Origin: Bacillota bacterium | GTDB lineage: Bacteria; Bacillota; DTU030; DUMP01 | Length of the DNA stretch: 64,000 bases | Assembly: GCA_030154105.1 (NCBI GenBank) | Contig: JASKKP010000001.1 | Coordinates: 81,967 to 145,966 of the forward strand | Reading direction: 5' to 3' | In this document: positions 45,431-55,698 of the stretch, one piece after another | How the letters are laid out: every line of letters starts with the position of its first letter | How positions within the stretch are numbered: position 1 is the stretch's first letter | Notes under the pieces: model-generated | The model's database searches: none | Seen by the model: only the letters and a program-made list of their open reading frames with translations | What the model was told of the DNA's origin: nothing | Made by a program: the position numbers and the translations under genes

Positions 45431-46219
45431 TTACTTTGCCGCGCTGGTGGACAGGGCGCGGTAGACGACCTCGGAAATCCGGGCGATGGCCTCGACGCCG
45501 GCGGAATTGGCGGCGAGGTCGGCGGTGAGGACGACGAGGATGTAGGGACGGCCGGGCAGGAAGATGATACCGGCATCGTGTTCGAGGCCGTCAAGGTCGC
45601 CGGTCTTATGGGCAACCACCACGTCCTTAGGAAGGTAGGCCGGTAACTTGTTCCTTAGCTGCTGGCGCTTCATGATATCGATAATAGTGGCCGAGGCAGC
45701 AGGGCCGACCACTTTTCCTTCGTAGAGAAGTTTAAGGAGGAGGCCCAGATCTCCGGCGGAGGTAAAGTTGTTGCGGCCGGCGCGGGCAGCTTCAAAGTCC
45801 ATCATTTTGCGCTGCAGTACCGTATGCTTAAGCCCCAGCTCCCGGCACAGAGCGTTAACGGCTTCCGTACCTACGAGGTCGATGAGCTGGTTGGTGGCGG
45901 TATTGTCGCTCTGGATGATCATAAGGGTGGCCAAGTCGCGGACGGTGGGCCTGAGATTCGGGTTTAGCTCGCCGAGCACGCCGGCGCCACCGACCCGGTT
46001 GGATGAGGCAATGGCCACCTGGTCGTTCAGGCTAAATTTCCCGGCTTCTGCGGCTTTGAGCACCGCCGCTAGGAGCGGGATCTTGATGGTACTGGCAGAG
46101 GGAAAGACCCTTTCCGGATTTACCGTGAAGGTCTCCCCACCGGTTAGGTCCTCCAGGTACATGGCAACCTTCCCTTCCAAGCTCCCCAGCACCGAAAAGA
46201 CTTCTCTTTCCGGAAACAT
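45431..46219 (-). CDS. Class A beta-lactamase-like serine hydrolase, no signal peptide
   Basis: SASTIK (SxxK), SDN, HKTG. Confidence 0.88.
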   Translation of the reverse strand: MFPEREVFSVLGSLEGKVAMYLEDLTGGETFTVNPERVFPSASTIKIPLLAAVLKAAEAGKFSLNDQVAIASSNRVGGAGVLGELNPNLRPTVRDLATLMIIQSDNTATNQLIDLVGTEAVNALCRELGLKHTVLQRKMMDFEAARAGRNNFTSAGDLGLLLKLLYEGKVVGPAASATIIDIMKRQQLRNKLPAYLPKDVVVAHKTGDLDGLEHDAGIIFLPGRPYILVVLTADLAANSAGVEAIARISEVVYRALSTSAAK

Positions 46220-46398
46220 GGCAACACCCCGCAGTCCAAAAAGCATATTCTCCGTCGGTTTAAACTATGATGCAGATAGCCTTGATAGTCTAAGACGTCG
46301 GCGGGAAAGGCGGGCGCGCGGAGAATCCGTCGAAACAAGGCAGGAGGAACTTACTTCCAAAATGTGGAAGTTAAGCTGGAGAACTTATCGGGTAAGGG

Positions 46399-48681: not shown

Positions 48682-49123
48682 AGTGCGTATAGAACCCATG
48701 ACGGTGGACGATATCCCGGGCGTGCTGGAGGTGGAGGAAAAGTCCTTTCCCACGCCGTGGAAGCGCGACGCGTTTTTATTTGAACTTCTACACAACAAGG
48801 TGGCCCATTACCTGGTGGCCAAGGCCGGCAATCGAGTGGTGGGCTACGGCGGAATGTGGATCCTCGTGGACGAGGCCCATGTGACGAACATTGCTGTGCA
48901 CCCTGATTGGCGCCGGCGCGGTATCGGCGAAGCCCTCCTCCGGCGGCTTATGGCTGAGGCAAAAGAGCGCGGCGCCGACCGCATGACCCTTGAGGTTCGG
49001 AAATCCAATTGGCAGGCTCGCCGCCTTTATGAGAAGCTTGGCTTCCTTACCCTCGGCTGCCGCCGCAACTACTACACCGAGACCCGCGAAGACGCGCTCA
49101 TCATGTGGAAGTACGACTTATAG
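48665..49123 (+). CDS. rimI: Ribosomal-protein alanine N-acetyltransferase
   Basis: HVTNIAV-P--RRRGIG, LEVR-SN--A--LY, R-NYY...EDAL-M. Confidence 0.92.
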   Translation: MELVPEVRIEPMTVDDIPGVLEVEEKSFPTPWKRDAFLFELLHNKVAHYLVAKAGNRVVGYGGMWILVDEAHVTNIAVHPDWRRRGIGEALLRRLMAEAKERGADRMTLEVRKSNWQARRLYEKLGFLTLGCRRNYYTETREDALIMWKYDL

Positions 49124-49284
49124 CGCGTAGAATTTCAGCCCGTCCGTAGATGTCGGACAGGGAAGGAAGCGTGTACAGTCTTGCCCGGGGGGCTCTTAGA
49201 ACACTAAGCGCTATTTCCCAAGCCCCCGAATAGAAAGGGATCCCTGGAGAAGTGGGATCCCTTAATTTTTGTGCTGACTGTGCA

Positions 49285-49300
49285 ATAACCAACAGGTTAT
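49285..49300. promoter_or_regulatory. Palindromic operator upstream of the ferredoxin-flavoprotein cassette (LysR-type candidate)
   Basis: ATAACC-AACA-GGTTAT, about 55-65 nt upstream of TATAAT at 49351, which lacks a good -35. Confidence 0.5.
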
Positions 49301-49469
49301 CAGTGAGATGAAACTTAGATATTTCAGCCTCTTTGCAAACAAAGCTAAAATATAATTGAAAAATAATCAGGAGGCGGAGGCAAAATTCTCTGCGGGCCAA
49401 TTTTCTTTATATTATGCAGATTGACTCGGTCGGCTTGCGCAAGAGAGCTATAGGGAGGAGGTATAGGCA

Positions 49470-49703
49470 TTGAACACCATTGTTGTTGACAGAGAGAAAT
49501 GTGTAGGTTGTAAGCTATGTTATCGGGCCTGCTGGCGAGATGTGATCCGGTGGGACGAAAAGGAAAACGTACCCAGGGGTGTCTACATGGAAGACTGTGC
49601 CGAGTGTAATTGGTGCGAAATAATTTGTCCCCACGAGGCCATAACGGTGAAAATTGACTACTCGCGACCGTTTCCCTCGCCGTATATACCGGGGAAAAAC
49701 TAG
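49470..49703 (+). CDS. 2x[4Fe-4S] ferredoxin, AprB-like
   Basis: CVGCKLCYRAC and CAECNWCEIICP. Confidence 0.9.
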   Translation: MNTIVVDREKCVGCKLCYRACWRDVIRWDEKENVPRGVYMEDCAECNWCEIICPHEAITVKIDYSRPFPSPYIPGKN

Positions 49704-49735
49704 AAAATGCGTGATTCAAGGAGGGAGTGGGGGTT

Positions 49736-51469
49736 ATGCCGCAAGGACTCGATACGCAGGTGTACGAAACGGATATCCTGGTGGTTGGGCACGGTATTGC
49801 TGGCCTGGCTGCTGCTATAAGCGCAAAAGAAAATCAGCCCAGCTTAAGGGTAACGACTGTGGACAAAGGGTGCGTTGGCTACGCGGGGAAGGCAAACAAG
49901 GGAGGCGGACACGTCGCGTTTATACCAGAAGGTGGCGAAGAACAGTATGTAGAGTACCACACGCGTAATCTGGGTGATTATCTTAATGATCAGGACATGC
50001 TGCGGATCTACGCCAATTCAACCCTCAAGACATTAGGTCGCTGGGAATCGTGGGGCGTAAAGTTCATAATCCCACGTGAAAGGGCATTAAATGCCCATCC
50101 GATTATTCCCTGGAAAATCACTTTGGTCGATCTGGACGTGATGGTCCAGATGGGCCGCTATGCTCGGGAGCTAGGCATTAAGAGCGTGGAAAAAACTACT
50201 ATCATTGATCTCTTAAGGAAAGGCGACCGCGTTGTAGGAGCTATCGGTTTTGACCTGATTACGGGTAACACGATAATTTTCAAAGCGAAAGCGGTCATTA
50301 TGGCCAACGGCAACCAAAACTGGGGTATTGTTCCGATGTGGTCCAGCGGACGCGGCGATGGCATAGCTGCGGCCTATCGGGCCGGGGCGAAGATGCGCAA
50401 TGCCGAATTTGGTAGCTTCATTCAAATCGTGCATAAGGACAGCAAAACTGTTTCCTACGGAGCGGAGGATTGCCTTTACAACGCCCAGGGAGAAAATGTA
50501 AGCACCCGCGCCAACCTGGAAGAAAACCTGCGAACGGTTGTGGGCGGAGTCGACTTGGGTGGTAGTCAGTCTGTTCTTATGTACCTTGAAGTTAGAGACG
50601 GTAAAGGCCCTATCTACGAAAAGGTGGAAGAAAATAAACTCCCCGGCTCGTTTATAGGCAGAAATTTATGCTGTCAAGGTACTGCTGACCCGCCGTTTTA
50701 TCGCCCGTGGGCGCAAAAGTTTTGGGATCGCCTCAATGCGAAGAATCGCGCTCAGTGTCCAGGTTTTGACGTTCCGTTACGTGAGTCGGTTCCTGCTGTA
50801 GTGGGCGAGATGAGCCCTTTATACGTTGACCACAACATGTATACGGGCGTGCCGGGGCTATATGCGGCGGGAGACATCTGCGCCAACGGCAGTGCGTGGT
50901 CGGGTGCCGTTCCCACACCACCGGGCAGAAACCGCGGTTCCGGTTTGATGCATGCCGTACTTACGGCGATAATCGCTGCTAAGTCGGCCTGTGAGTATGC
51001 CGCCGCTGTTTCTTGGGAGGATCCTGAGCCTGATCAAATCGACGCCCTGAGGCAAAGAATGTACGCCAATTTAAACAATCGCGGGGCCATTAGGCCTACG
51101 GATATGAAATGGCAGATTCAAAACATTATGCAGCCGGTAGCTTACACCGGCTACAAAAGGGAAGATAGGTTACAGGAAGCCTTGGGAAAAGTCCTTGAGC
51201 TAAAAGGCATGCTACCTGACTTGGTTGCTCGGGATCCTCACGAACTGGCCTCTGTGCATGAGTGTATTAACACCGTCTTATGCGCCGAAATGTTCTTCCG
51301 GGCATCGCTCGCGCGGAAAGAAAGCAGAGGTTGGCACTTGAGAGAAGACTACCCGCACCGGGATGACAAAAACTTTCTAAAGTGGATTGTGATCAAGGAT
51401 AATAACGGCGAAATGGAGCTTAGCTTGGAAGACGTTCCCATTGAGAGATACAAGTACAAACCGGAATGA
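49736..51469 (+). CDS. FAD-dependent oxidoreductase, SdhA/FrdA/AprA superfamily
   Basis: DILVVGHGIAGL-AA, GDGIAAAYRAGA, GLYAAGD, ESRGWH-REDYP; GGAGGGAG RBS. Confidence 0.85.
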   Translation: MPQGLDTQVYETDILVVGHGIAGLAAAISAKENQPSLRVTTVDKGCVGYAGKANKGGGHVAFIPEGGEEQYVEYHTRNLGDYLNDQDMLRIYANSTLKTLGRWESWGVKFIIPRERALNAHPIIPWKITLVDLDVMVQMGRYARELGIKSVEKTTIIDLLRKGDRVVGAIGFDLITGNTIIFKAKAVIMANGNQNWGIVPMWSSGRGDGIAAAYRAGAKMRNAEFGSFIQIVHKDSKTVSYGAEDCLYNAQGENVSTRANLEENLRTVVGGVDLGGSQSVLMYLEVRDGKGPIYEKVEENKLPGSFIGRNLCCQGTADPPFYRPWAQKFWDRLNAKNRAQCPGFDVPLRESVPAVVGEMSPLYVDHNMYTGVPGLYAAGDICANGSAWSGAVPTPPGRNRGSGLMHAVLTAIIAAKSACEYAAAVSWEDPEPDQIDALRQRMYANLNNRGAIRPTDMKWQIQNIMQPVAYTGYKREDRLQEALGKVLELKGMLPDLVARDPHELASVHECINTVLCAEMFFRASLARKESRGWHLREDYPHRDDKNFLKWIVIKDNNGEMELSLEDVPIERYKYKPE

Positions 51470-51518
51470 GTCTATCCATGCAATTAGCCGGCTAGTAGCG
51501 GACAGGGAGGACTAAAGA

Positions 51519-52139
51519 GTGGGAGTTAGACAGGACGATCGCAAATGGACCCACATTGATTGGGAGTTGGAAAACGTAACCGCGAAAATGATCAGCTGGT
51601 TTTGGTGCAATATGGAAAAGGGTTTTGCGCTGTGGCATCCTAACGAACACATGGATTTCTATTGGGCGATCAAACCTAAAAACAACAATCCGATAGGTTC
51701 AATTCACGTAGCGCCGCAGCGCTGGTCCGATGGCACTTTGACGAAGCCCCACATACGTATGGAAGATGTAGCTACGCTCCCTGAGGATATCGCCGATATC
51801 ATCATTTATGATCATGCCGTAGTGGTAGCAGGGATCAGCCTGACGGAAGAAGACTACAAACCCGACAACCCGCCCCTTGCGTACCGTATTCACCAGTGGG
51901 AGAAGACGGATTTCGGGGTCAAGGGTATGTCTTCGGCCATTCCGTTGGCCCCAGAACCCTTGGAAGTAGAGAGGGGGCTCGTTTGGGCCAAGCATGCCGC
52001 AGAAGAGGTACGATACTGGCAAGATTTTCTCCCCGAGCTCTACAAGTTGTGGAGTGTGGTGAAAAACCCGGAACTAAATCCTTATTTCTCGTTCAAGATA
52101 AAACGAGAGGGTAAAACCTTGAGGTATGCAACAGATTAG
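51519..52139 (+). CDS. PhlG/phloretin-hydrolase-like (DAPG hydrolase family) protein
   Basis: M-SWFW...LWHPNEH and KHAAEE---WQDFLPELY recall the His/Glu metal-ligand motifs of PhlG. Confidence 0.6.
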   Translation: MGVRQDDRKWTHIDWELENVTAKMISWFWCNMEKGFALWHPNEHMDFYWAIKPKNNNPIGSIHVAPQRWSDGTLTKPHIRMEDVATLPEDIADIIIYDHAVVVAGISLTEEDYKPDNPPLAYRIHQWEKTDFGVKGMSSAIPLAPEPLEVERGLVWAKHAAEEVRYWQDFLPELYKLWSVVKNPELNPYFSFKIKREGKTLRYATD

Positions 52140-52248
52140 AATTATCTCGTTTTATGGCTGAGGTCTCGTGCCCGTCCTCTCGGGCTACACACCAACGTGG
52201 CGGGGAAGAGGAGCACGAGATCTTTTTTTCTTTTCGGGCCGAGGTGGA

Positions 52249-53133
52249 CTAAACAGACTTTTTTTGAGCTAGCAGGTGGTGAATAAACAGGGGTAACGAA
52301 GGATTGCAATTGTTTTTTTCCCAGGCGGCTGATACTACGTGTTTCTCTTCTAGTGCTAGGAACCTGTACATTGTACGCGGGTAAATCCTGACCAGTTTGT
52401 CCACAATGGCAACGCCCAGCCCAGTCTCAACAGATAAGAGCATCGAGCCAATATTTGGTGCTATGACAATTTCTTTCGGGGCAAAGCCGTACCTTGCGCA
52501 AACCTGAGCAACAAAGTCCTTGGCTACAGGGGATTCGTCGGGCGCGATGACAAAAAACCGCTCATTTCGCAAATCTGAAGGTCGCAGATCTTTTTTGCCG
52601 CAAAGGGGATGGTGCCGGGAAATGATTATAGCACAAGGAGCTTCACAGATCGTGAGGCGCTCGAGGTCTGGTCTATCTTTTACCTCTACGTCAAGGGTAA
52701 TAATGAGGTCTAATGCCCCCACGTTGAGCAGACGGAGCAATGCTGAAAAACCATAGCGCTCTATTTTTAAATGAACGCCAGGATGTTCGTTCTGAAAAGC
52801 TTTAAGAGCTTTGGGCAAGAAGCGAAGATCCAACTCTTCAAGGCAACCTATGTTTAACACCCCACGGGGTTCTTTGCAAATCCTTCTAGCTTTACTTAAA
52901 GACTGCTCGTATTCCTCGGCGATGCGCTGGAACGCCGCCAGCATAACCTCTCCTGCCGGTGTTAGCCTAACAGAGCGGTAGTTTCGCTCGAAAAGCTTGA
53001 CCCCCATTTCCCTTTCCATGGCCGCGATTTGCTTGCTTATGGCCGGTTGGGAGACAAAGAGATGCTTGGCCGTTTTAGTGAAATTTAGGTACTTGGCTAG
53101 GGCCAGAAAATACTTTATCTGCAAGCTGTTCAT
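52249..53133 (-). CDS. LysR-family regulator
   Basis: NFTKTAKHLFVSQPAISKQI--ME-EMGVKLFER. Confidence 0.95.
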   Translation of the reverse strand: MNSLQIKYFLALAKYLNFTKTAKHLFVSQPAISKQIAAMEREMGVKLFERNYRSVRLTPAGEVMLAAFQRIAEEYEQSLSKARRICKEPRGVLNIGCLEELDLRFLPKALKAFQNEHPGVHLKIERYGFSALLRLLNVGALDLIITLDVEVKDRPDLERLTICEAPCAIIISRHHPLCGKKDLRPSDLRNERFFVIAPDESPVAKDFVAQVCARYGFAPKEIVIAPNIGSMLLSVETGLGVAIVDKLVRIYPRTMYRFLALEEKHVVSAAWEKNNCNPSLPLFIHHLLAQKKSV

Positions 53134-53425
53134 ATCATCACCCTGCCCGGGGGCGTATAATCGTTAAGCCGTAGAACATAGGTTGCATATTCGCCGGGTT
53201 CGGTTACTAAATTCGATAAAGGCTAGACGGTTCCTGCTGAACATAGGCAATAGTACGCTTTGTAACACAACATTATTGATGGTACGAATTATCCCACCAA
53301 AGACGACGGTGTGTTGGTCGGGCAGTGGGGCAACCTAGCCGTGCGGCAGAGCTTCGAGGCCCTGATGCACCTTCTTGCCGACGAAAACTGGTGCGTTTAA
53401 TGATATAATGTCCTTAGGTGATAGC

Positions 53426-55021
53426 ATGTGGGGGAGAACCTTAAGCCTAAGGGCGCTGATCGTTATTCTGGTCACTGCGGTGGTGGTTTCGTCGCTGGGG
53501 CTGGTGGCTTTCCTCACCACGCAGGTGATGGAACGCAACATGAAGGACCAGATCGGCCAAAACGCCCTGAGCATTGCTCGGTTGGTGGCTTCCCTTCCGG
53601 AAATCAGTGCCGCCTGCCAGGCACCGGACCCGGCCGTCGCCTTAAGACCGTTGGTGGAGAAGATTCAGGAACGCACCGGGGTCAATTTTGTGGTGGTAAT
53701 GGATATGAATGGAATTCGCTACACTCATCCCAACCGGAGTCTAATCGGCCTGCGCTTTACCGGCGGCGATGAGGGACCGGCGCTTAGGGGGGCAGAGTAT
53801 TATTCGGCGGCGGTGGGCATATCGGGCCCGTCCATCCGCGGTTTCGCGCCGGTGTACGATGCCCAGGGGCGACAGATTGCGGCCGTGGCGGTGGGAATTT
53901 TCCAGAGCGGGATATACCGGGCCCTGCACGAGCTAAGGTGGGCCATCCTCAGCACGGCGGTGTGGGGCCTCTTGGTAGGGTTCTTTGGAGCGGTGCTTTT
54001 GGCTGCCCGCATAAAACGGGCCATCTTTAACCTGGAGCCCATCGAAATTGCTACTTTGCAGCAGGAGCAGCAGGCCATGCTCTACTCGCTCCGCGAGGGT
54101 ATCATCGCCATAAACAGCGAAGGCCGCATATCTCTTATCAATGAAGAAGCGCGGCGGATTATGGGCCTGGGGCCGGAGTGCGTAGGCCGGCCGATTGAAG
54201 AGCTCATCCCTTCTACGCGGCTCCCCCAGGTGATGGCCACCGGCCGGCCTGAGTACGACCAGGAACAATTCATCAACGGTCGGGTCATCCTCACCAACAG
54301 GGTGCCGGTGGTGGTAAACGGCCGTGTTGTCGGAGCCTTGGCCACTTTCCGCGACCGCACGGAAATCCAGAGCCTCATGGAGGAACTTACGGGGGTTAAG
54401 CAGCTGGTAACGGCACTGAGGGCGCAGTCGCACGAATTCTTGAACAAGCTCCATACCATTCTTGGACTGATCCAACTCGGCGAGTACGAGGAGGCGGTGC
54501 GCTTTATCAGCCAGACCAGCAGCCAACAGCAGCAGCTGGTTAGCCTAGTCGTGCGCCGGCTCAAGAACCCCGCTGTAGCCGGCCTCCTCTTGGGTAAGAT
54601 TGCCGAGGCGCGCGAACGCCAGGTGCGGCTCATCATCCGCCCCGGTAGCCATCTCGAGGATTTGCCGCCCCTCTTTGATACCTACCAAATGGTGGCCGTC
54701 TTGGGCAATTTGGTGCAAAACGCCATCGAGGCGGTGGAAAAGCAGCCTCCTGAGCGGAGAGAAGTGGCCGTTTCTATTTACAGCCGCGCCGACCGCCTGG
54801 AATTTTTTGTCCACGACCGCGGGACCGGGATACCTCCGGATATCCGGAGCCGTATCTTTGAACCTGCCTTTTCGACGAAAGAGGAGGGCCGCGGCTTGGG
54901 GTTGCACCTGGTGGAAGAGCACGTGCAGGCGGCGGGCGGACGGATCGGGCTACGCAGTTCGGCCAGGGGGACGACCTTCCGCATTGTTATTCCCCGCCTG
55001 GGGGGAGGGCAGGCGGCATGA
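53426..55021 (+). CDS. CitA/DcuS/MalK-type sensor histidine kinase
   Basis: TM-sCache-TM-PAS, LRAQSHEF-NKLH, LGNLVQNA, STK..GRGLGL. Confidence 0.92.
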   Translation: MWGRTLSLRALIVILVTAVVVSSLGLVAFLTTQVMERNMKDQIGQNALSIARLVASLPEISAACQAPDPAVALRPLVEKIQERTGVNFVVVMDMNGIRYTHPNRSLIGLRFTGGDEGPALRGAEYYSAAVGISGPSIRGFAPVYDAQGRQIAAVAVGIFQSGIYRALHELRWAILSTAVWGLLVGFFGAVLLAARIKRAIFNLEPIEIATLQQEQQAMLYSLREGIIAINSEGRISLINEEARRIMGLGPECVGRPIEELIPSTRLPQVMATGRPEYDQEQFINGRVILTNRVPVVVNGRVVGALATFRDRTEIQSLMEELTGVKQLVTALRAQSHEFLNKLHTILGLIQLGEYEEAVRFISQTSSQQQQLVSLVVRRLKNPAVAGLLLGKIAEARERQVRLIIRPGSHLEDLPPLFDTYQMVAVLGNLVQNAIEAVEKQPPERREVAVSIYSRADRLEFFVHDRGTGIPPDIRSRIFEPAFSTKEEGRGLGLHLVEEHVQAAGGRIGLRSSARGTTFRIVIPRLGGGQAA

Positions 55022-55698
55022 GCGAGGTTATAAGGGTGCTCATTGTGGAAGACGACTCCATGGTGGCGGAGATCAACAAAAGGTATACGGAGAAGACCGG
55101 TGGATTCTGGGTGGTCGGTGTGGCCACGACCGGCGAGGAGGCGGTGGAGGCCGTCCGCTCGCTCAACCCGGACCTGGTTCTGCTGGATGTGTATCTGCCG
55201 CGGGGGAACGGCCTGGAGGTGCTTCGGTCCATCCGGGCGGCCGACATTGCCGCCGATGTCATCCTGATTACGGCAGCACAGGATGCAGTTTCGGTGGAGC
55301 AGGCCCTGCGCTATGGAGCCGTGGACTACATTATCAAACCTTTCGATTTCCACCGCCTGGCCGGTACCCTGAACGCCTACCGCGAGCGGCGCCGCCGCCT
55401 GGCCGAACGTGAGCGCCTGGGGCAGGCGGAAATCGACCGGTTGGTAAAGGGCGTGCCTGCAGGTGTGGCCGATCCCGTTCTGCCCAAAGGGCTGGACCGA
55501 TATACCCTAGATCAGGTCCAAAATTACCTCTGCACCAGAGGCGGAGCGCTTTCGGCTCAGGAGGTCGCGGCTGCGCTCGGACTTTCCCGCGTTACGGTGC
55601 GCCGCTACTTGGAGTACCTGGTGGAGGCGGGGGAGGCGACGGCAGAACTGGAGTACGTACCGGTAGGCCGGCCGGTGAAACGCTATCGCAGCACGTAG
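55018..55698 (+). CDS. CitB/DcuR-type response regulator
   Basis: VEDD, LLDVYLP, DYIIKPF, SRVTVRRYLEYL. Confidence 0.92.
   Translation: MSEVIRVLIVEDDSMVAEINKRYTEKTGGFWVVGVATTGEEAVEAVRSLNPDLVLLDVYLPRGNGLEVLRSIRAADIAADVILITAAQDAVSVEQALRYGAVDYIIKPFDFHRLAGTLNAYRERRRRLAERERLGQAEIDRLVKGVPAGVADPVLPKGLDRYTLDQVQNYLCTRGGALSAQEVAAALGLSRVTVRRYLEYLVEAGEATAELEYVPVGRPVKRYRST

Follow-up and report, generated by a model that had tools for sequence, protein, structure and literature searches.

A 4.28-kb island at positions 49118-53398 of a 64,000-nucleotide stretch of a Bacillota bacterium genome (assembly GCA_030154105.1, contig JASKKP010000001.1, positions 81,967 to 145,966 of the forward strand; hereafter the window) appears to encode a two-enzyme module of anaerobic flavonoid catabolism, self-contained and under LysR control, in which a ferredoxin-driven reduction would be followed by a C-C hydrolysis that releases phloroglucinol. 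We put the probability of this reading at roughly 60%. The island carries a gene for a 77-residue 2x[4Fe-4S] ferredoxin (fdx; 49470-49703, forward strand), one for a 580-residue soluble flavoprotein that binds flavin adenine dinucleotide (FAD) (FLAVO; 49727-51469, forward), one for a short, 206-residue protein resembling PhlG and phloretin hydrolase (HYD; 51519-52139, forward), and one for a LysR-type regulator that is convergent with the other three (52249-53133, reverse). A first-pass annotation of this DNA had described the ferredoxin, the flavoprotein, the motif-bearing 206-residue protein, the convergent LysR gene and an upstream palindrome, and all of them are present. It had also proposed an undescribed polyphenol cassette that pairs a redox flavoprotein with a C-C hydrolase; the recurrent flavonoid-gene context of the relatives supports this proposal and suggests that it could be sharpened to flavonols and auronols. 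The two enzymes belong to known superfamilies but to subfamilies that are uncharacterised, and their combination is undescribed.

HYD, the hydrolase candidate, contains the motifs LWHPNEH (residues 38-44), HAAEE (159-163) and FLPELY (170-175). Its homology was shown by fold search and hhalign because single-sequence and profile hidden Markov model (HMM) searches against PDB sequences reached phloretin hydrolase only at an E-value of about 0.4. The AlphaFold2 model (pLDDT 90.7) retrieved 5xey, 5xe5 and 3hwp as its top PDB folds in Foldseek (E about 1e-6, TM-score 0.55-0.57), followed by generic Bet v1/START proteins, and the motif blocks line up with 5xe5. In hhalign, the HYD family profile matched canonical DAPG_hydrolase proteins from related loci with 97.3% probability (E 2e-11), residues 15-176 of HYD spanning residues 81-272 of a 279-residue canonical protein. 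At three of the four presumed metal-ligand positions the residues agree, with H44, H159 and E163 of HYD aligned on the invariant H113, H255 and E259; at the fourth, the invariant E146 of the canonical proteins is replaced by a glutamine, Q67, which is itself invariant (26/26 HYD sequences). The spacing matches that of the PhlG zinc ligands, H129, E160, H270 and E274. The PhlG-like assignment made earlier holds by fold (5xey/5xe5, 3hwp) and by hhalign but not by Pfam score: against DAPG_hydrolase (PF18089) HYD reaches 19.6 bits, under the gathering threshold of 22.7. Some family members carry a precomputed above-threshold PF18089 match, and an NCBIfam search of HYD gave no match.

HYD is, on this evidence, best described as a remote relative of PhlG and phloretin hydrolase (Phy) that would consist of the catalytic domain with the N-terminal domain of about 75-90 residues gone, and is presumed to be a metal-dependent C-C hydrolase with a Bet v1-like fold. 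With Phy (Eubacterium ramulus; M. abscessus, 5XE5/5XEY) and PhlG (3HWP) it shares that catalytic fold, the W-x-P-x-x-H and H-x-x-x-E...FLPxxY blocks, and the company of flavonoid and phloroglucinol genes. It differs from them in lacking about 75 N-terminal residues (the alignment begins at Phy residue 81), in its identity of just 17-22%, and in keeping an invariant Gln where the canonical proteins keep an invariant Glu; unlike Phy, moreover, it accompanies chalcone isomerase (CHI) and IorAB rather than Fcr, and it can coexist with a canonical Phy within the same cluster. The family, whose members are 201-217 residues long, forms 156 clusters at 90% identity, all without a name, and 142 clusters at 50% identity among 1.84 billion representatives (E <= 1e-10). 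HYD-like domains also occur as C-terminal parts of larger proteins (P0277, of 749 residues, and P0311, P0324, P0361 and P0364).

The context in which HYD occurs carries most of the functional argument. A scan with one genome per species found relatives in at least 459 species genomes, of which 80 loci (numbered here with the prefix L) were retrieved and examined; their neighbour genes were clustered and then named, and the locus counts that follow refer to these 80. The most frequent partner, in 26 loci, is a flavodoxin-like flavin mononucleotide (FMN) protein whose representative matches PDB 7D38 at 1e-134, that is, the published flavone reductase (FLR) of Flavonifractor plautii (PDB 7D38-7D3B; Yang et al. 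2021, PMC7862272). Bacterial CHI was found in about 24 loci (9e-53 to 3zph), IorA in 17 and IorB in 15, and Ptb and Buk in about 12-13, their place being taken in Thermoleophilia loci by an ADP-forming acyl-CoA synthetase. About 15 loci hold a short-chain dehydrogenase/reductase, a cyclase, a 3-hydroxyacyl dehydrogenase (3HCDH) and BKACE, as in the phloroglucinol pathway of Clostridium scatologenes (PMC10470551). Downstream of the closest HYD relative (78% identity) lie two CHI genes. Canonical DAPG_hydrolase/Phy proteins (245 bits) stand beside HYD in three loci (L004:6093-6932, L005:11783-12694 and L014:7765-8310), while no recurrent gene of the old yellow enzyme (OYE) or Fcr type appeared among 50 long neighbouring open reading frames (ORFs), and phl-type genes were seen in none of the HYD loci. 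This neighbourhood would place HYD in flavonoid catabolism, on the branch that runs through CHI and not through Fcr, and, because canonical Phy stands beside it in three loci, in a role distinct from that of Phy. As substrates, flavonols and auronols fit this context better than phloretin or 2,4-diacetylphloroglucinol (DAPG) as such.

Some further members of these neighbourhoods merit description in their own right. The ADP-forming acyl-CoA synthetase (ATP-grasp_5 and Succ_CoA_lig domains) lies beside IorAB at L048:2267-4459 and in L034, L041 and L057, which fits an arylacetyl-CoA intermediate. A conserved protein of about 213 residues with no Pfam match, c19, accompanies IorAB, Ptb and Buk where the flavonoid clusters are larger (L069:12799-13440, L083:8039-8689, and also L009, L050, L054, L056 and L079) and is absent from the genome of the window. 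EthD-domain proteins occupy the place of CHI in several FLAVO loci; those at the CHI position in Acidobacteriota and Thermoleophilia (229-286 residues; L005, L007, L022, L034, L041, L048 and L063) may be analogous isomerases.

The first-pass annotation had asked whether the ferredoxin, flavoprotein and hydrolase genes recur together, and they do. In 16 of the 80 loci, from Bacillota, Acidobacteriota, Actinomycetota, Desulfobacterota and Bathyarchaeia, the fdx-FLAVO pair is found no more than 7 kb from HYD, and the trio is also present in Vibrio. The order fdx-FLAVO-HYD recurs in Wukongibacter and in Proteocatella (L068). In Vibrio sp. HA2012 the arrangement is CHI-MFS-channel-IorA-IorB-Ptb-Buk-c19-fdx-FLAVO-HYD-<LysR (MFS, major facilitator superfamily), i.e., the four genes of the window plus the rest of the pathway. 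Comparison with such loci shows that the four genes are the core of a larger recurrent cluster, including CHI, IorAB and Ptb/Buk, whose other members are missing from this genome. In metagenome-assembled genomes of Bathyarchaeia (L011-L014 and L016), fdx-FLAVO is divergent from HYD and accompanied by a second FAD_binding_2 protein, FMN_red and an MFS transporter, L014 also holding a canonical Phy; these archaea may thus cleave flavonoids.

The ferredoxin and flavoprotein genes form a fixed pair with AprBA-like gene order and fold: fdx stands directly 5' of the FLAVO gene wherever both are detected, and its product is presumed to be the electron-input subunit. It has two CxxCxxCxxxC motifs and matches the Pfam families Fer4, Fer4_21 and Fer4_7. 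The label "AprB-like" that it had been given is borne out by gene order but not by sequence, given a score of 26 bits against the aprB model TIGR02060 (cut-off 135.65) and best PDB matches to generic polyferredoxin and PsaC modules. FLAVO (Pfam FAD_binding_2 and Succ_DH_flav_C) more likely starts at the ATG at 49736, 8 nt past a GGAGGGAG ribosome-binding site. It falls under every NCBIfam cut-off, the best model being PRK08275 (183 bits against 587), with 69 bits against 641.75 for aprA (TIGR02061) and 132 against 557 for NF005331. Its AlphaFold2 model (pLDDT 85.5) is closest in fold to 8a8o and 1jnr and then to FrdA/SdhA; the alpha subunit of the 3'-phosphoadenosine 5'-phosphosulfate (PAPS) reductase, 8a8o, is its nearest relative by both sequence and fold (22% identity, TM-score 0.76-0.79).

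FLAVO was set apart from AprA by HMM cut-offs and by active-site columns rather than by a tree. When 26 members of the FLAVO family were aligned with E. coli FrdA, the position of the covalent-FAD residue His44 was Gly in all 26, that of R287 was Ala, Pro, Thr or Ser, that of H355 was Val or Ile, and H232 could not be aligned; only R390 is kept, as R401, within an invariant GAVPxPPGRxRG. R287 and H355 of FrdA are the equivalents of R265 and H398 in A. fulgidus AprA. Likewise, both arginines of the FEMRFIALRVKD stretch of 8a8o are absent from FLAVO in the HMMER alignment. FLAVO belongs to an uncharacterised subfamily of the SdhA/FrdA/AprA fold and, with catalytic and dicarboxylate-binding residues replaced, is neither a fumarate reductase nor a reductase of adenosine 5'-phosphosulfate (APS) or PAPS; all the homologues found are unnamed or carry generic names. 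The island holds no FrdB/SdhB-type three-cluster subunit, membrane anchor, sat, qmo or dsr gene (sat and qmo having been searched for there only), and no bona fide aprA was found in this genome (best profile match 38 bits) or among the 16 species genomes that represent its class. The earlier judgement that a succinate dehydrogenase or a true APS reductase is unlikely agrees with these scores, residues and missing partners, as does the placement of FLAVO outside AprA.

FLAVO and fdx also share features with AprAB. The A. fulgidus enzyme (1JNR) and the M. thermolithotrophicus PAPS reductase (8A8O) are the closest solved structures to FLAVO (TM-score 0.72-0.79, 22-24% identity), and the parallels extend to the logic of a soluble heterodimer, to the small two-cluster ferredoxin gene directly upstream, and to a non-covalent FAD, given the Gly of FLAVO at the His44 position. 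On the other hand, the HMM scores of FLAVO lie far under the cut-offs, the catalytic Arg/His pair is replaced, the 77-residue fdx lacks the AprB tail, and the cassette has no sulfur-metabolism context.

What FLAVO might reduce is suggested by its distribution relative to FLR. Among bacterial loci, FLAVO and FLR were found together in none, FLAVO alone in 13 and FLR alone in 23 (Fisher p = 0.0055, a value that is overstated, as the loci are phylogenetically non-independent). The clusters of Vibrio and Wukongibacter have CHI, IorAB, Ptb, Buk and c19, with FLR absent. The simplest reading is that NADH-dependent FLR would have been non-orthologously displaced by FLAVO as a ferredoxin-dependent reductase. 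Both occupy the same apparent slot in the cluster (CHI-HYD-IorAB-Ptb-Buk plus either one), and the reaction we propose for FLAVO is that of FLR, the C2=C3 reduction of flavones and flavonols; yet the two proteins share no homology: FLR, at 36 kDa, is an FMN enzyme resembling flavodoxin and uses NADH, whereas FLAVO, at 64 kDa, binds FAD, adopts the SdhA/AprA fold and has a dedicated 2x[4Fe-4S] ferredoxin.

These elements can be assembled into a candidate pathway. In the CHI branch, a flavonol is converted to a flavanonol, then to an auronol (alphitonin), and finally to 3,4-dihydroxyphenylacetate and phloroglucinol. The last step has no named enzyme: a 2025 paper credits the cleavage of alphitonin to an "unknown enzyme" (PMC12203004), and two others leave the enzyme unnamed (PMC11170127, PMC13515148). 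Our search of full-text literature, in which subscription journals were largely uncovered, found no paper that gives a function to the HYD or FLAVO family or that names the alphitonin-cleaving enzyme. HYD is probably that enzyme, judging by its homology and neighbours. In the proposed sequence, the small ferredoxin would hand low-potential electrons to the FAD of FLAVO, which would reduce the C2=C3 bond of the flavonol or flavone C-ring, the step driven by NADH through FLR in other clusters. The product, ring-opened or contracted to an auronol/1,2-diketone of the alphitonin type, would then be hydrolysed by HYD, giving phloroglucinol and an arylpyruvate. Elsewhere, IorAB together with Ptb/Buk or the ADP-forming acyl-CoA synthetase would convert the arylpyruvate to an arylacetate (e.g., 3,4-dihydroxyphenylacetate) with a gain of ATP, and the reduced ferredoxin from IorAB would feed back to the first step. 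A Phy-like hydrolysis of the alphitonin 1,2-diketone to arylpyruvate would account for the company of IorAB and Ptb/Buk, and the arylpyruvate route would also explain why the known arylacetate product is one carbon shorter. In its most specific form, with HYD cleaving alphitonin to phloroglucinol and 3,4-dihydroxyphenylpyruvate, IorAB/Ptb/Buk finishing the conversion and fdx-FLAVO acting as a new ferredoxin-dependent flavonol reductase of AprAB architecture that closes the redox loop, the scheme is tentative, and we would give it clearly short of even odds. The overall logic of reducing the substrate, opening the C-ring, hydrolysing off phloroglucinol and degrading it is that of the gut FLR-CHI-Fcr-Phy pathway combined with the C. 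scatologenes pathway, and the same neighbour genes occur in other HYD genomes. In contrast to that pathway, the window holds just a reductase and a hydrolase, both from uncharacterised subfamilies, with no Fcr, and the recurrent IorAB/Ptb/Buk implies a 2-oxo-acid branch leading to arylacetate products that the described pathway leaves unexplained.

The island itself would cover only the steps up to the hydrolysis. In the source assembly (2.10 Mb, 92.75% complete), tblastn detected no homologue of CHI, EthD-like proteins, FLR, the cyclase, BKACE or 3HCDH, and the island therefore seems to encode reduction and cleavage only. Isomerisation would have to be spontaneous, be carried out by HYD or FLAVO, or be unneeded for the true substrate (FLAVO may, for instance, open the C-ring directly, rendering CHI dispensable), and phloroglucinol would be excreted and released to partner organisms. 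A stand-alone IorAB (C2:203-2534), without flavonoid-related neighbours, and Buk are found elsewhere in the genome.

Several observations weigh against this proposal. The chemistry is read wholly from neighbour genes in other genomes, and the lack of CHI and of a phloroglucinol pathway in a genome of this completeness leaves both the ring contraction and the fate of phloroglucinol uncovered. HYD has Q67 in place of E146, which is presumed to be the fourth metal ligand, and could therefore differ in how it binds metal and even in its hydrolase activity; the invariant R401 of FLAVO, the counterpart of a carboxylate-binding residue, would suit a carboxylate substrate too. Besides the non-independence of loci behind the p value given above, the exclusion between FLAVO and FLR is not genome-wide, with six of 14 other FLAVO genomes carrying full- or near-full-length FLR-like genes elsewhere, and CHI is present in about 3 of 13 FLAVO loci as against 15 of 23 FLR loci. 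Finally, Holophaga foetida has fdx-FLAVO with no HYD nearby, so the reductase serves other contexts too. That locus (L081; KI912268.1, 2943616-2963355) places fdx-FLAVO with an AraC regulator, an MFS transporter, and LVIVD-repeat and glyoxalase-family proteins.

Among the alternatives, the one we take most seriously, while still considering it unlikely, is that fdx and FLAVO are a ferredoxin-driven substitute for the OYE-type Fcr/EnoR that makes a dihydrochalcone, which HYD, as a short Phy isoenzyme, would cleave to phloroglucinol and an arylpropionate or aryllactate. Reduction of alpha,beta-unsaturated carbonyls, a class to which chalcones belong, is typical of enzymes with the fumarate-reductase fold; HYD is homologous to Phy; the absence of an Fcr-type gene near HYD leaves that function vacant; and the minimal cassette without CHI (the window, Proteocatella L068 and L032) would suit a reductase whose product is hydrolysed directly. 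However, a canonical Phy beside HYD in three loci argues for different substrates, the recurrent IorAB with Ptb/Buk or the ADP-forming synthetase implies a 2-oxo-acid product that could not arise from a dihydrochalcone, and in full clusters FLAVO replaces FLR rather than being an added enzyme. It is less probable again that the module acts on non-flavonoid acylphloroglucinols or aromatic ketones (antibiotics of the DAPG and monoacetylphloroglucinol (MAPG) type, or plant acylphloroglucinols), serving as detoxification or as an electron sink and not as a carbon pathway. The DAPG hydrolase PhlG is indeed among the nearest characterised enzymes, the genome lacks CHI and a downstream phloroglucinol pathway, and the island was recently acquired, as expected for an accessory or detoxifying trait; set against this, the neighbours in other genomes are the flavonoid-specific FLR and CHI, and no phl-type genes were seen in the loci examined.

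The remaining two explanations concern FLAVO alone. It could act downstream of the hydrolase on the side chain, for example as an aryllactate/arylpyruvate or hydroxycinnamate oxidoreductase that exchanges electrons with the ferredoxin, as might be expected from the invariant R401 (the FrdA R390 counterpart) in GAVPxPPGRxRG and from the frequent adjacency of FLAVO to IorAB. We consider this quite improbable, as FLR clusters with the same CHI-HYD-IorAB-Ptb-Buk need no such enzyme and as the other three dicarboxylate-binding residues of FrdA are missing from FLAVO. Least probable by a wide measure is a true APS/PAPS reductase or fumarate reductase/succinate dehydrogenase that lies next to the hydrolase by coincidence. 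Its closest PDB entries by sequence and fold (8a8o and AprA 1jnr) and the aprBA-like order of ferredoxin and flavoprotein genes speak for it, while the scores far under every family cut-off, the missing covalent-FAD His, the replaced catalytic Arg/His pair, the lack of sat, qmo, FrdB or an anchor gene in the island and of a bona fide aprA in the class, and a linkage to HYD and flavonoid genes kept across six phyla all speak against it.

Regulation of the proposed flavonoid module by the convergent LysR protein (Pfam HTH_1 and LysR_substrate, 79 and 107 bits) gains support from comparison of promoters. A perfect palindrome of the form ATAACC-N4-GGTTAT, ATAACCAACAGGTTAT, lies at 49285-49300, about 170 bp 5' of fdx. 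A lone palindrome of this 6-N4-6 kind in a single intergenic region is within chance; we take it as a real operator because copies recur beside LysR genes of related clusters in five other genera. Its 12 specified bases have six further copies in the retrieved loci against 0.065 expected (no more than one copy in any of 200 shuffles), all of them in promoter regions, either next to a LysR gene or ahead of fdx, HYD or FLR. Tissierella (L042) has two perfect copies, upstream of HYD and of fdx; Wukongibacter (L056) has two, one beside LysR and one 176 bp ahead of fdx, a placement like that in the window; and Acidaminobacter (L050) and Alkalibaculum (L073) have one each. Copies with one mismatch lie beside LysR genes in L054 of Alkalibacter mobilis, a locus with an FLR-CHI-HYD cluster, and in L079, L058 and L065. 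The LysR homologues in the palindrome-bearing loci are 31-40% identical to that of the window, and the palindrome is thus a probable conserved operator of this LysR subgroup. At the other end of the putative operon, a long GC-rich hairpin followed by a run of seven U (52160-52229, forward) is the probable terminator of fdx-FLAVO-HYD, with a predicted fold of -38.9 kcal/mol (z = -2.9) for 52140-52240. A consensus promoter and terminator scan of the intergenic regions yielded nothing useful, the loop of this hairpin being too long for the scan, and no Rfam family was found in 48900-53500, leaving a riboswitch unsupported.

The cassette is a horizontally acquired replacement island, which sits within a tsaE-tsaB-rimI ... 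tsaD neighbourhood and has displaced a segment with an M20 peptidase and an AbgT transporter, because a congener holds these two genes, at native GC content (0.61-0.69), between the same end points. By blastn, homology to the complete congener genome (G021, locus L091) stops at 49117, the end of rimI, and picks up again at 53399, where a DcuS-type kinase begins. The AT-rich character noted earlier is evident as a GC content of 0.45-0.55 over 49000-53500, as compared with 0.59-0.67 in both flanks (means of about 0.49 for the island and 0.61 for its surroundings). Orthologues of HYD and FLAVO were found in one of the 16 species genomes of the class, i.e., in the source genome alone. No direct repeats, integrase or tRNA were found at the flanks, and the limits of the island were instead set by the congener comparison.

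The adjacent DcuS/DcuR-type two-component system was weighed as a possible regulator of the cassette and ruled out, since it is native and the congener, which has no such cassette, carries it in synteny. This system (window 53375-55698) adjoins the M20 peptidase and the AbgT-family transporter in the congener (L091, G021:C1:1229000-1237500), and its target operon may have been lost in the present genome. Further upstream in the window, a 271-residue ORF at 45431-46246 (reverse) has STIK, SDN and KTG motifs typical of serine hydrolases of the class A beta-lactamase/penicillin-binding type.

Flavonols such as quercetin are major polyphenols of diet and soil, and their breakdown under anoxia to phenylacetic acids and phloroglucinol influences both the exposure of humans to bioactive metabolites and the turnover of carbon in peat. 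The steps after chalcone isomerase have so far been without an assigned enzyme. Our analysis names clonable candidates, namely a compact hydrolase family and an iron-sulfur flavoprotein reductase, together with a defined LysR operator. The flavonoid reading would also give a reason for the recurrence of a 2-oxo-acid oxidoreductase and a phosphotransacylase/kinase pair near HYD genes, and a better annotation of polyphenol metabolism would follow for gut, rumen, sediment and archaeal (Bathyarchaeia) genomes.

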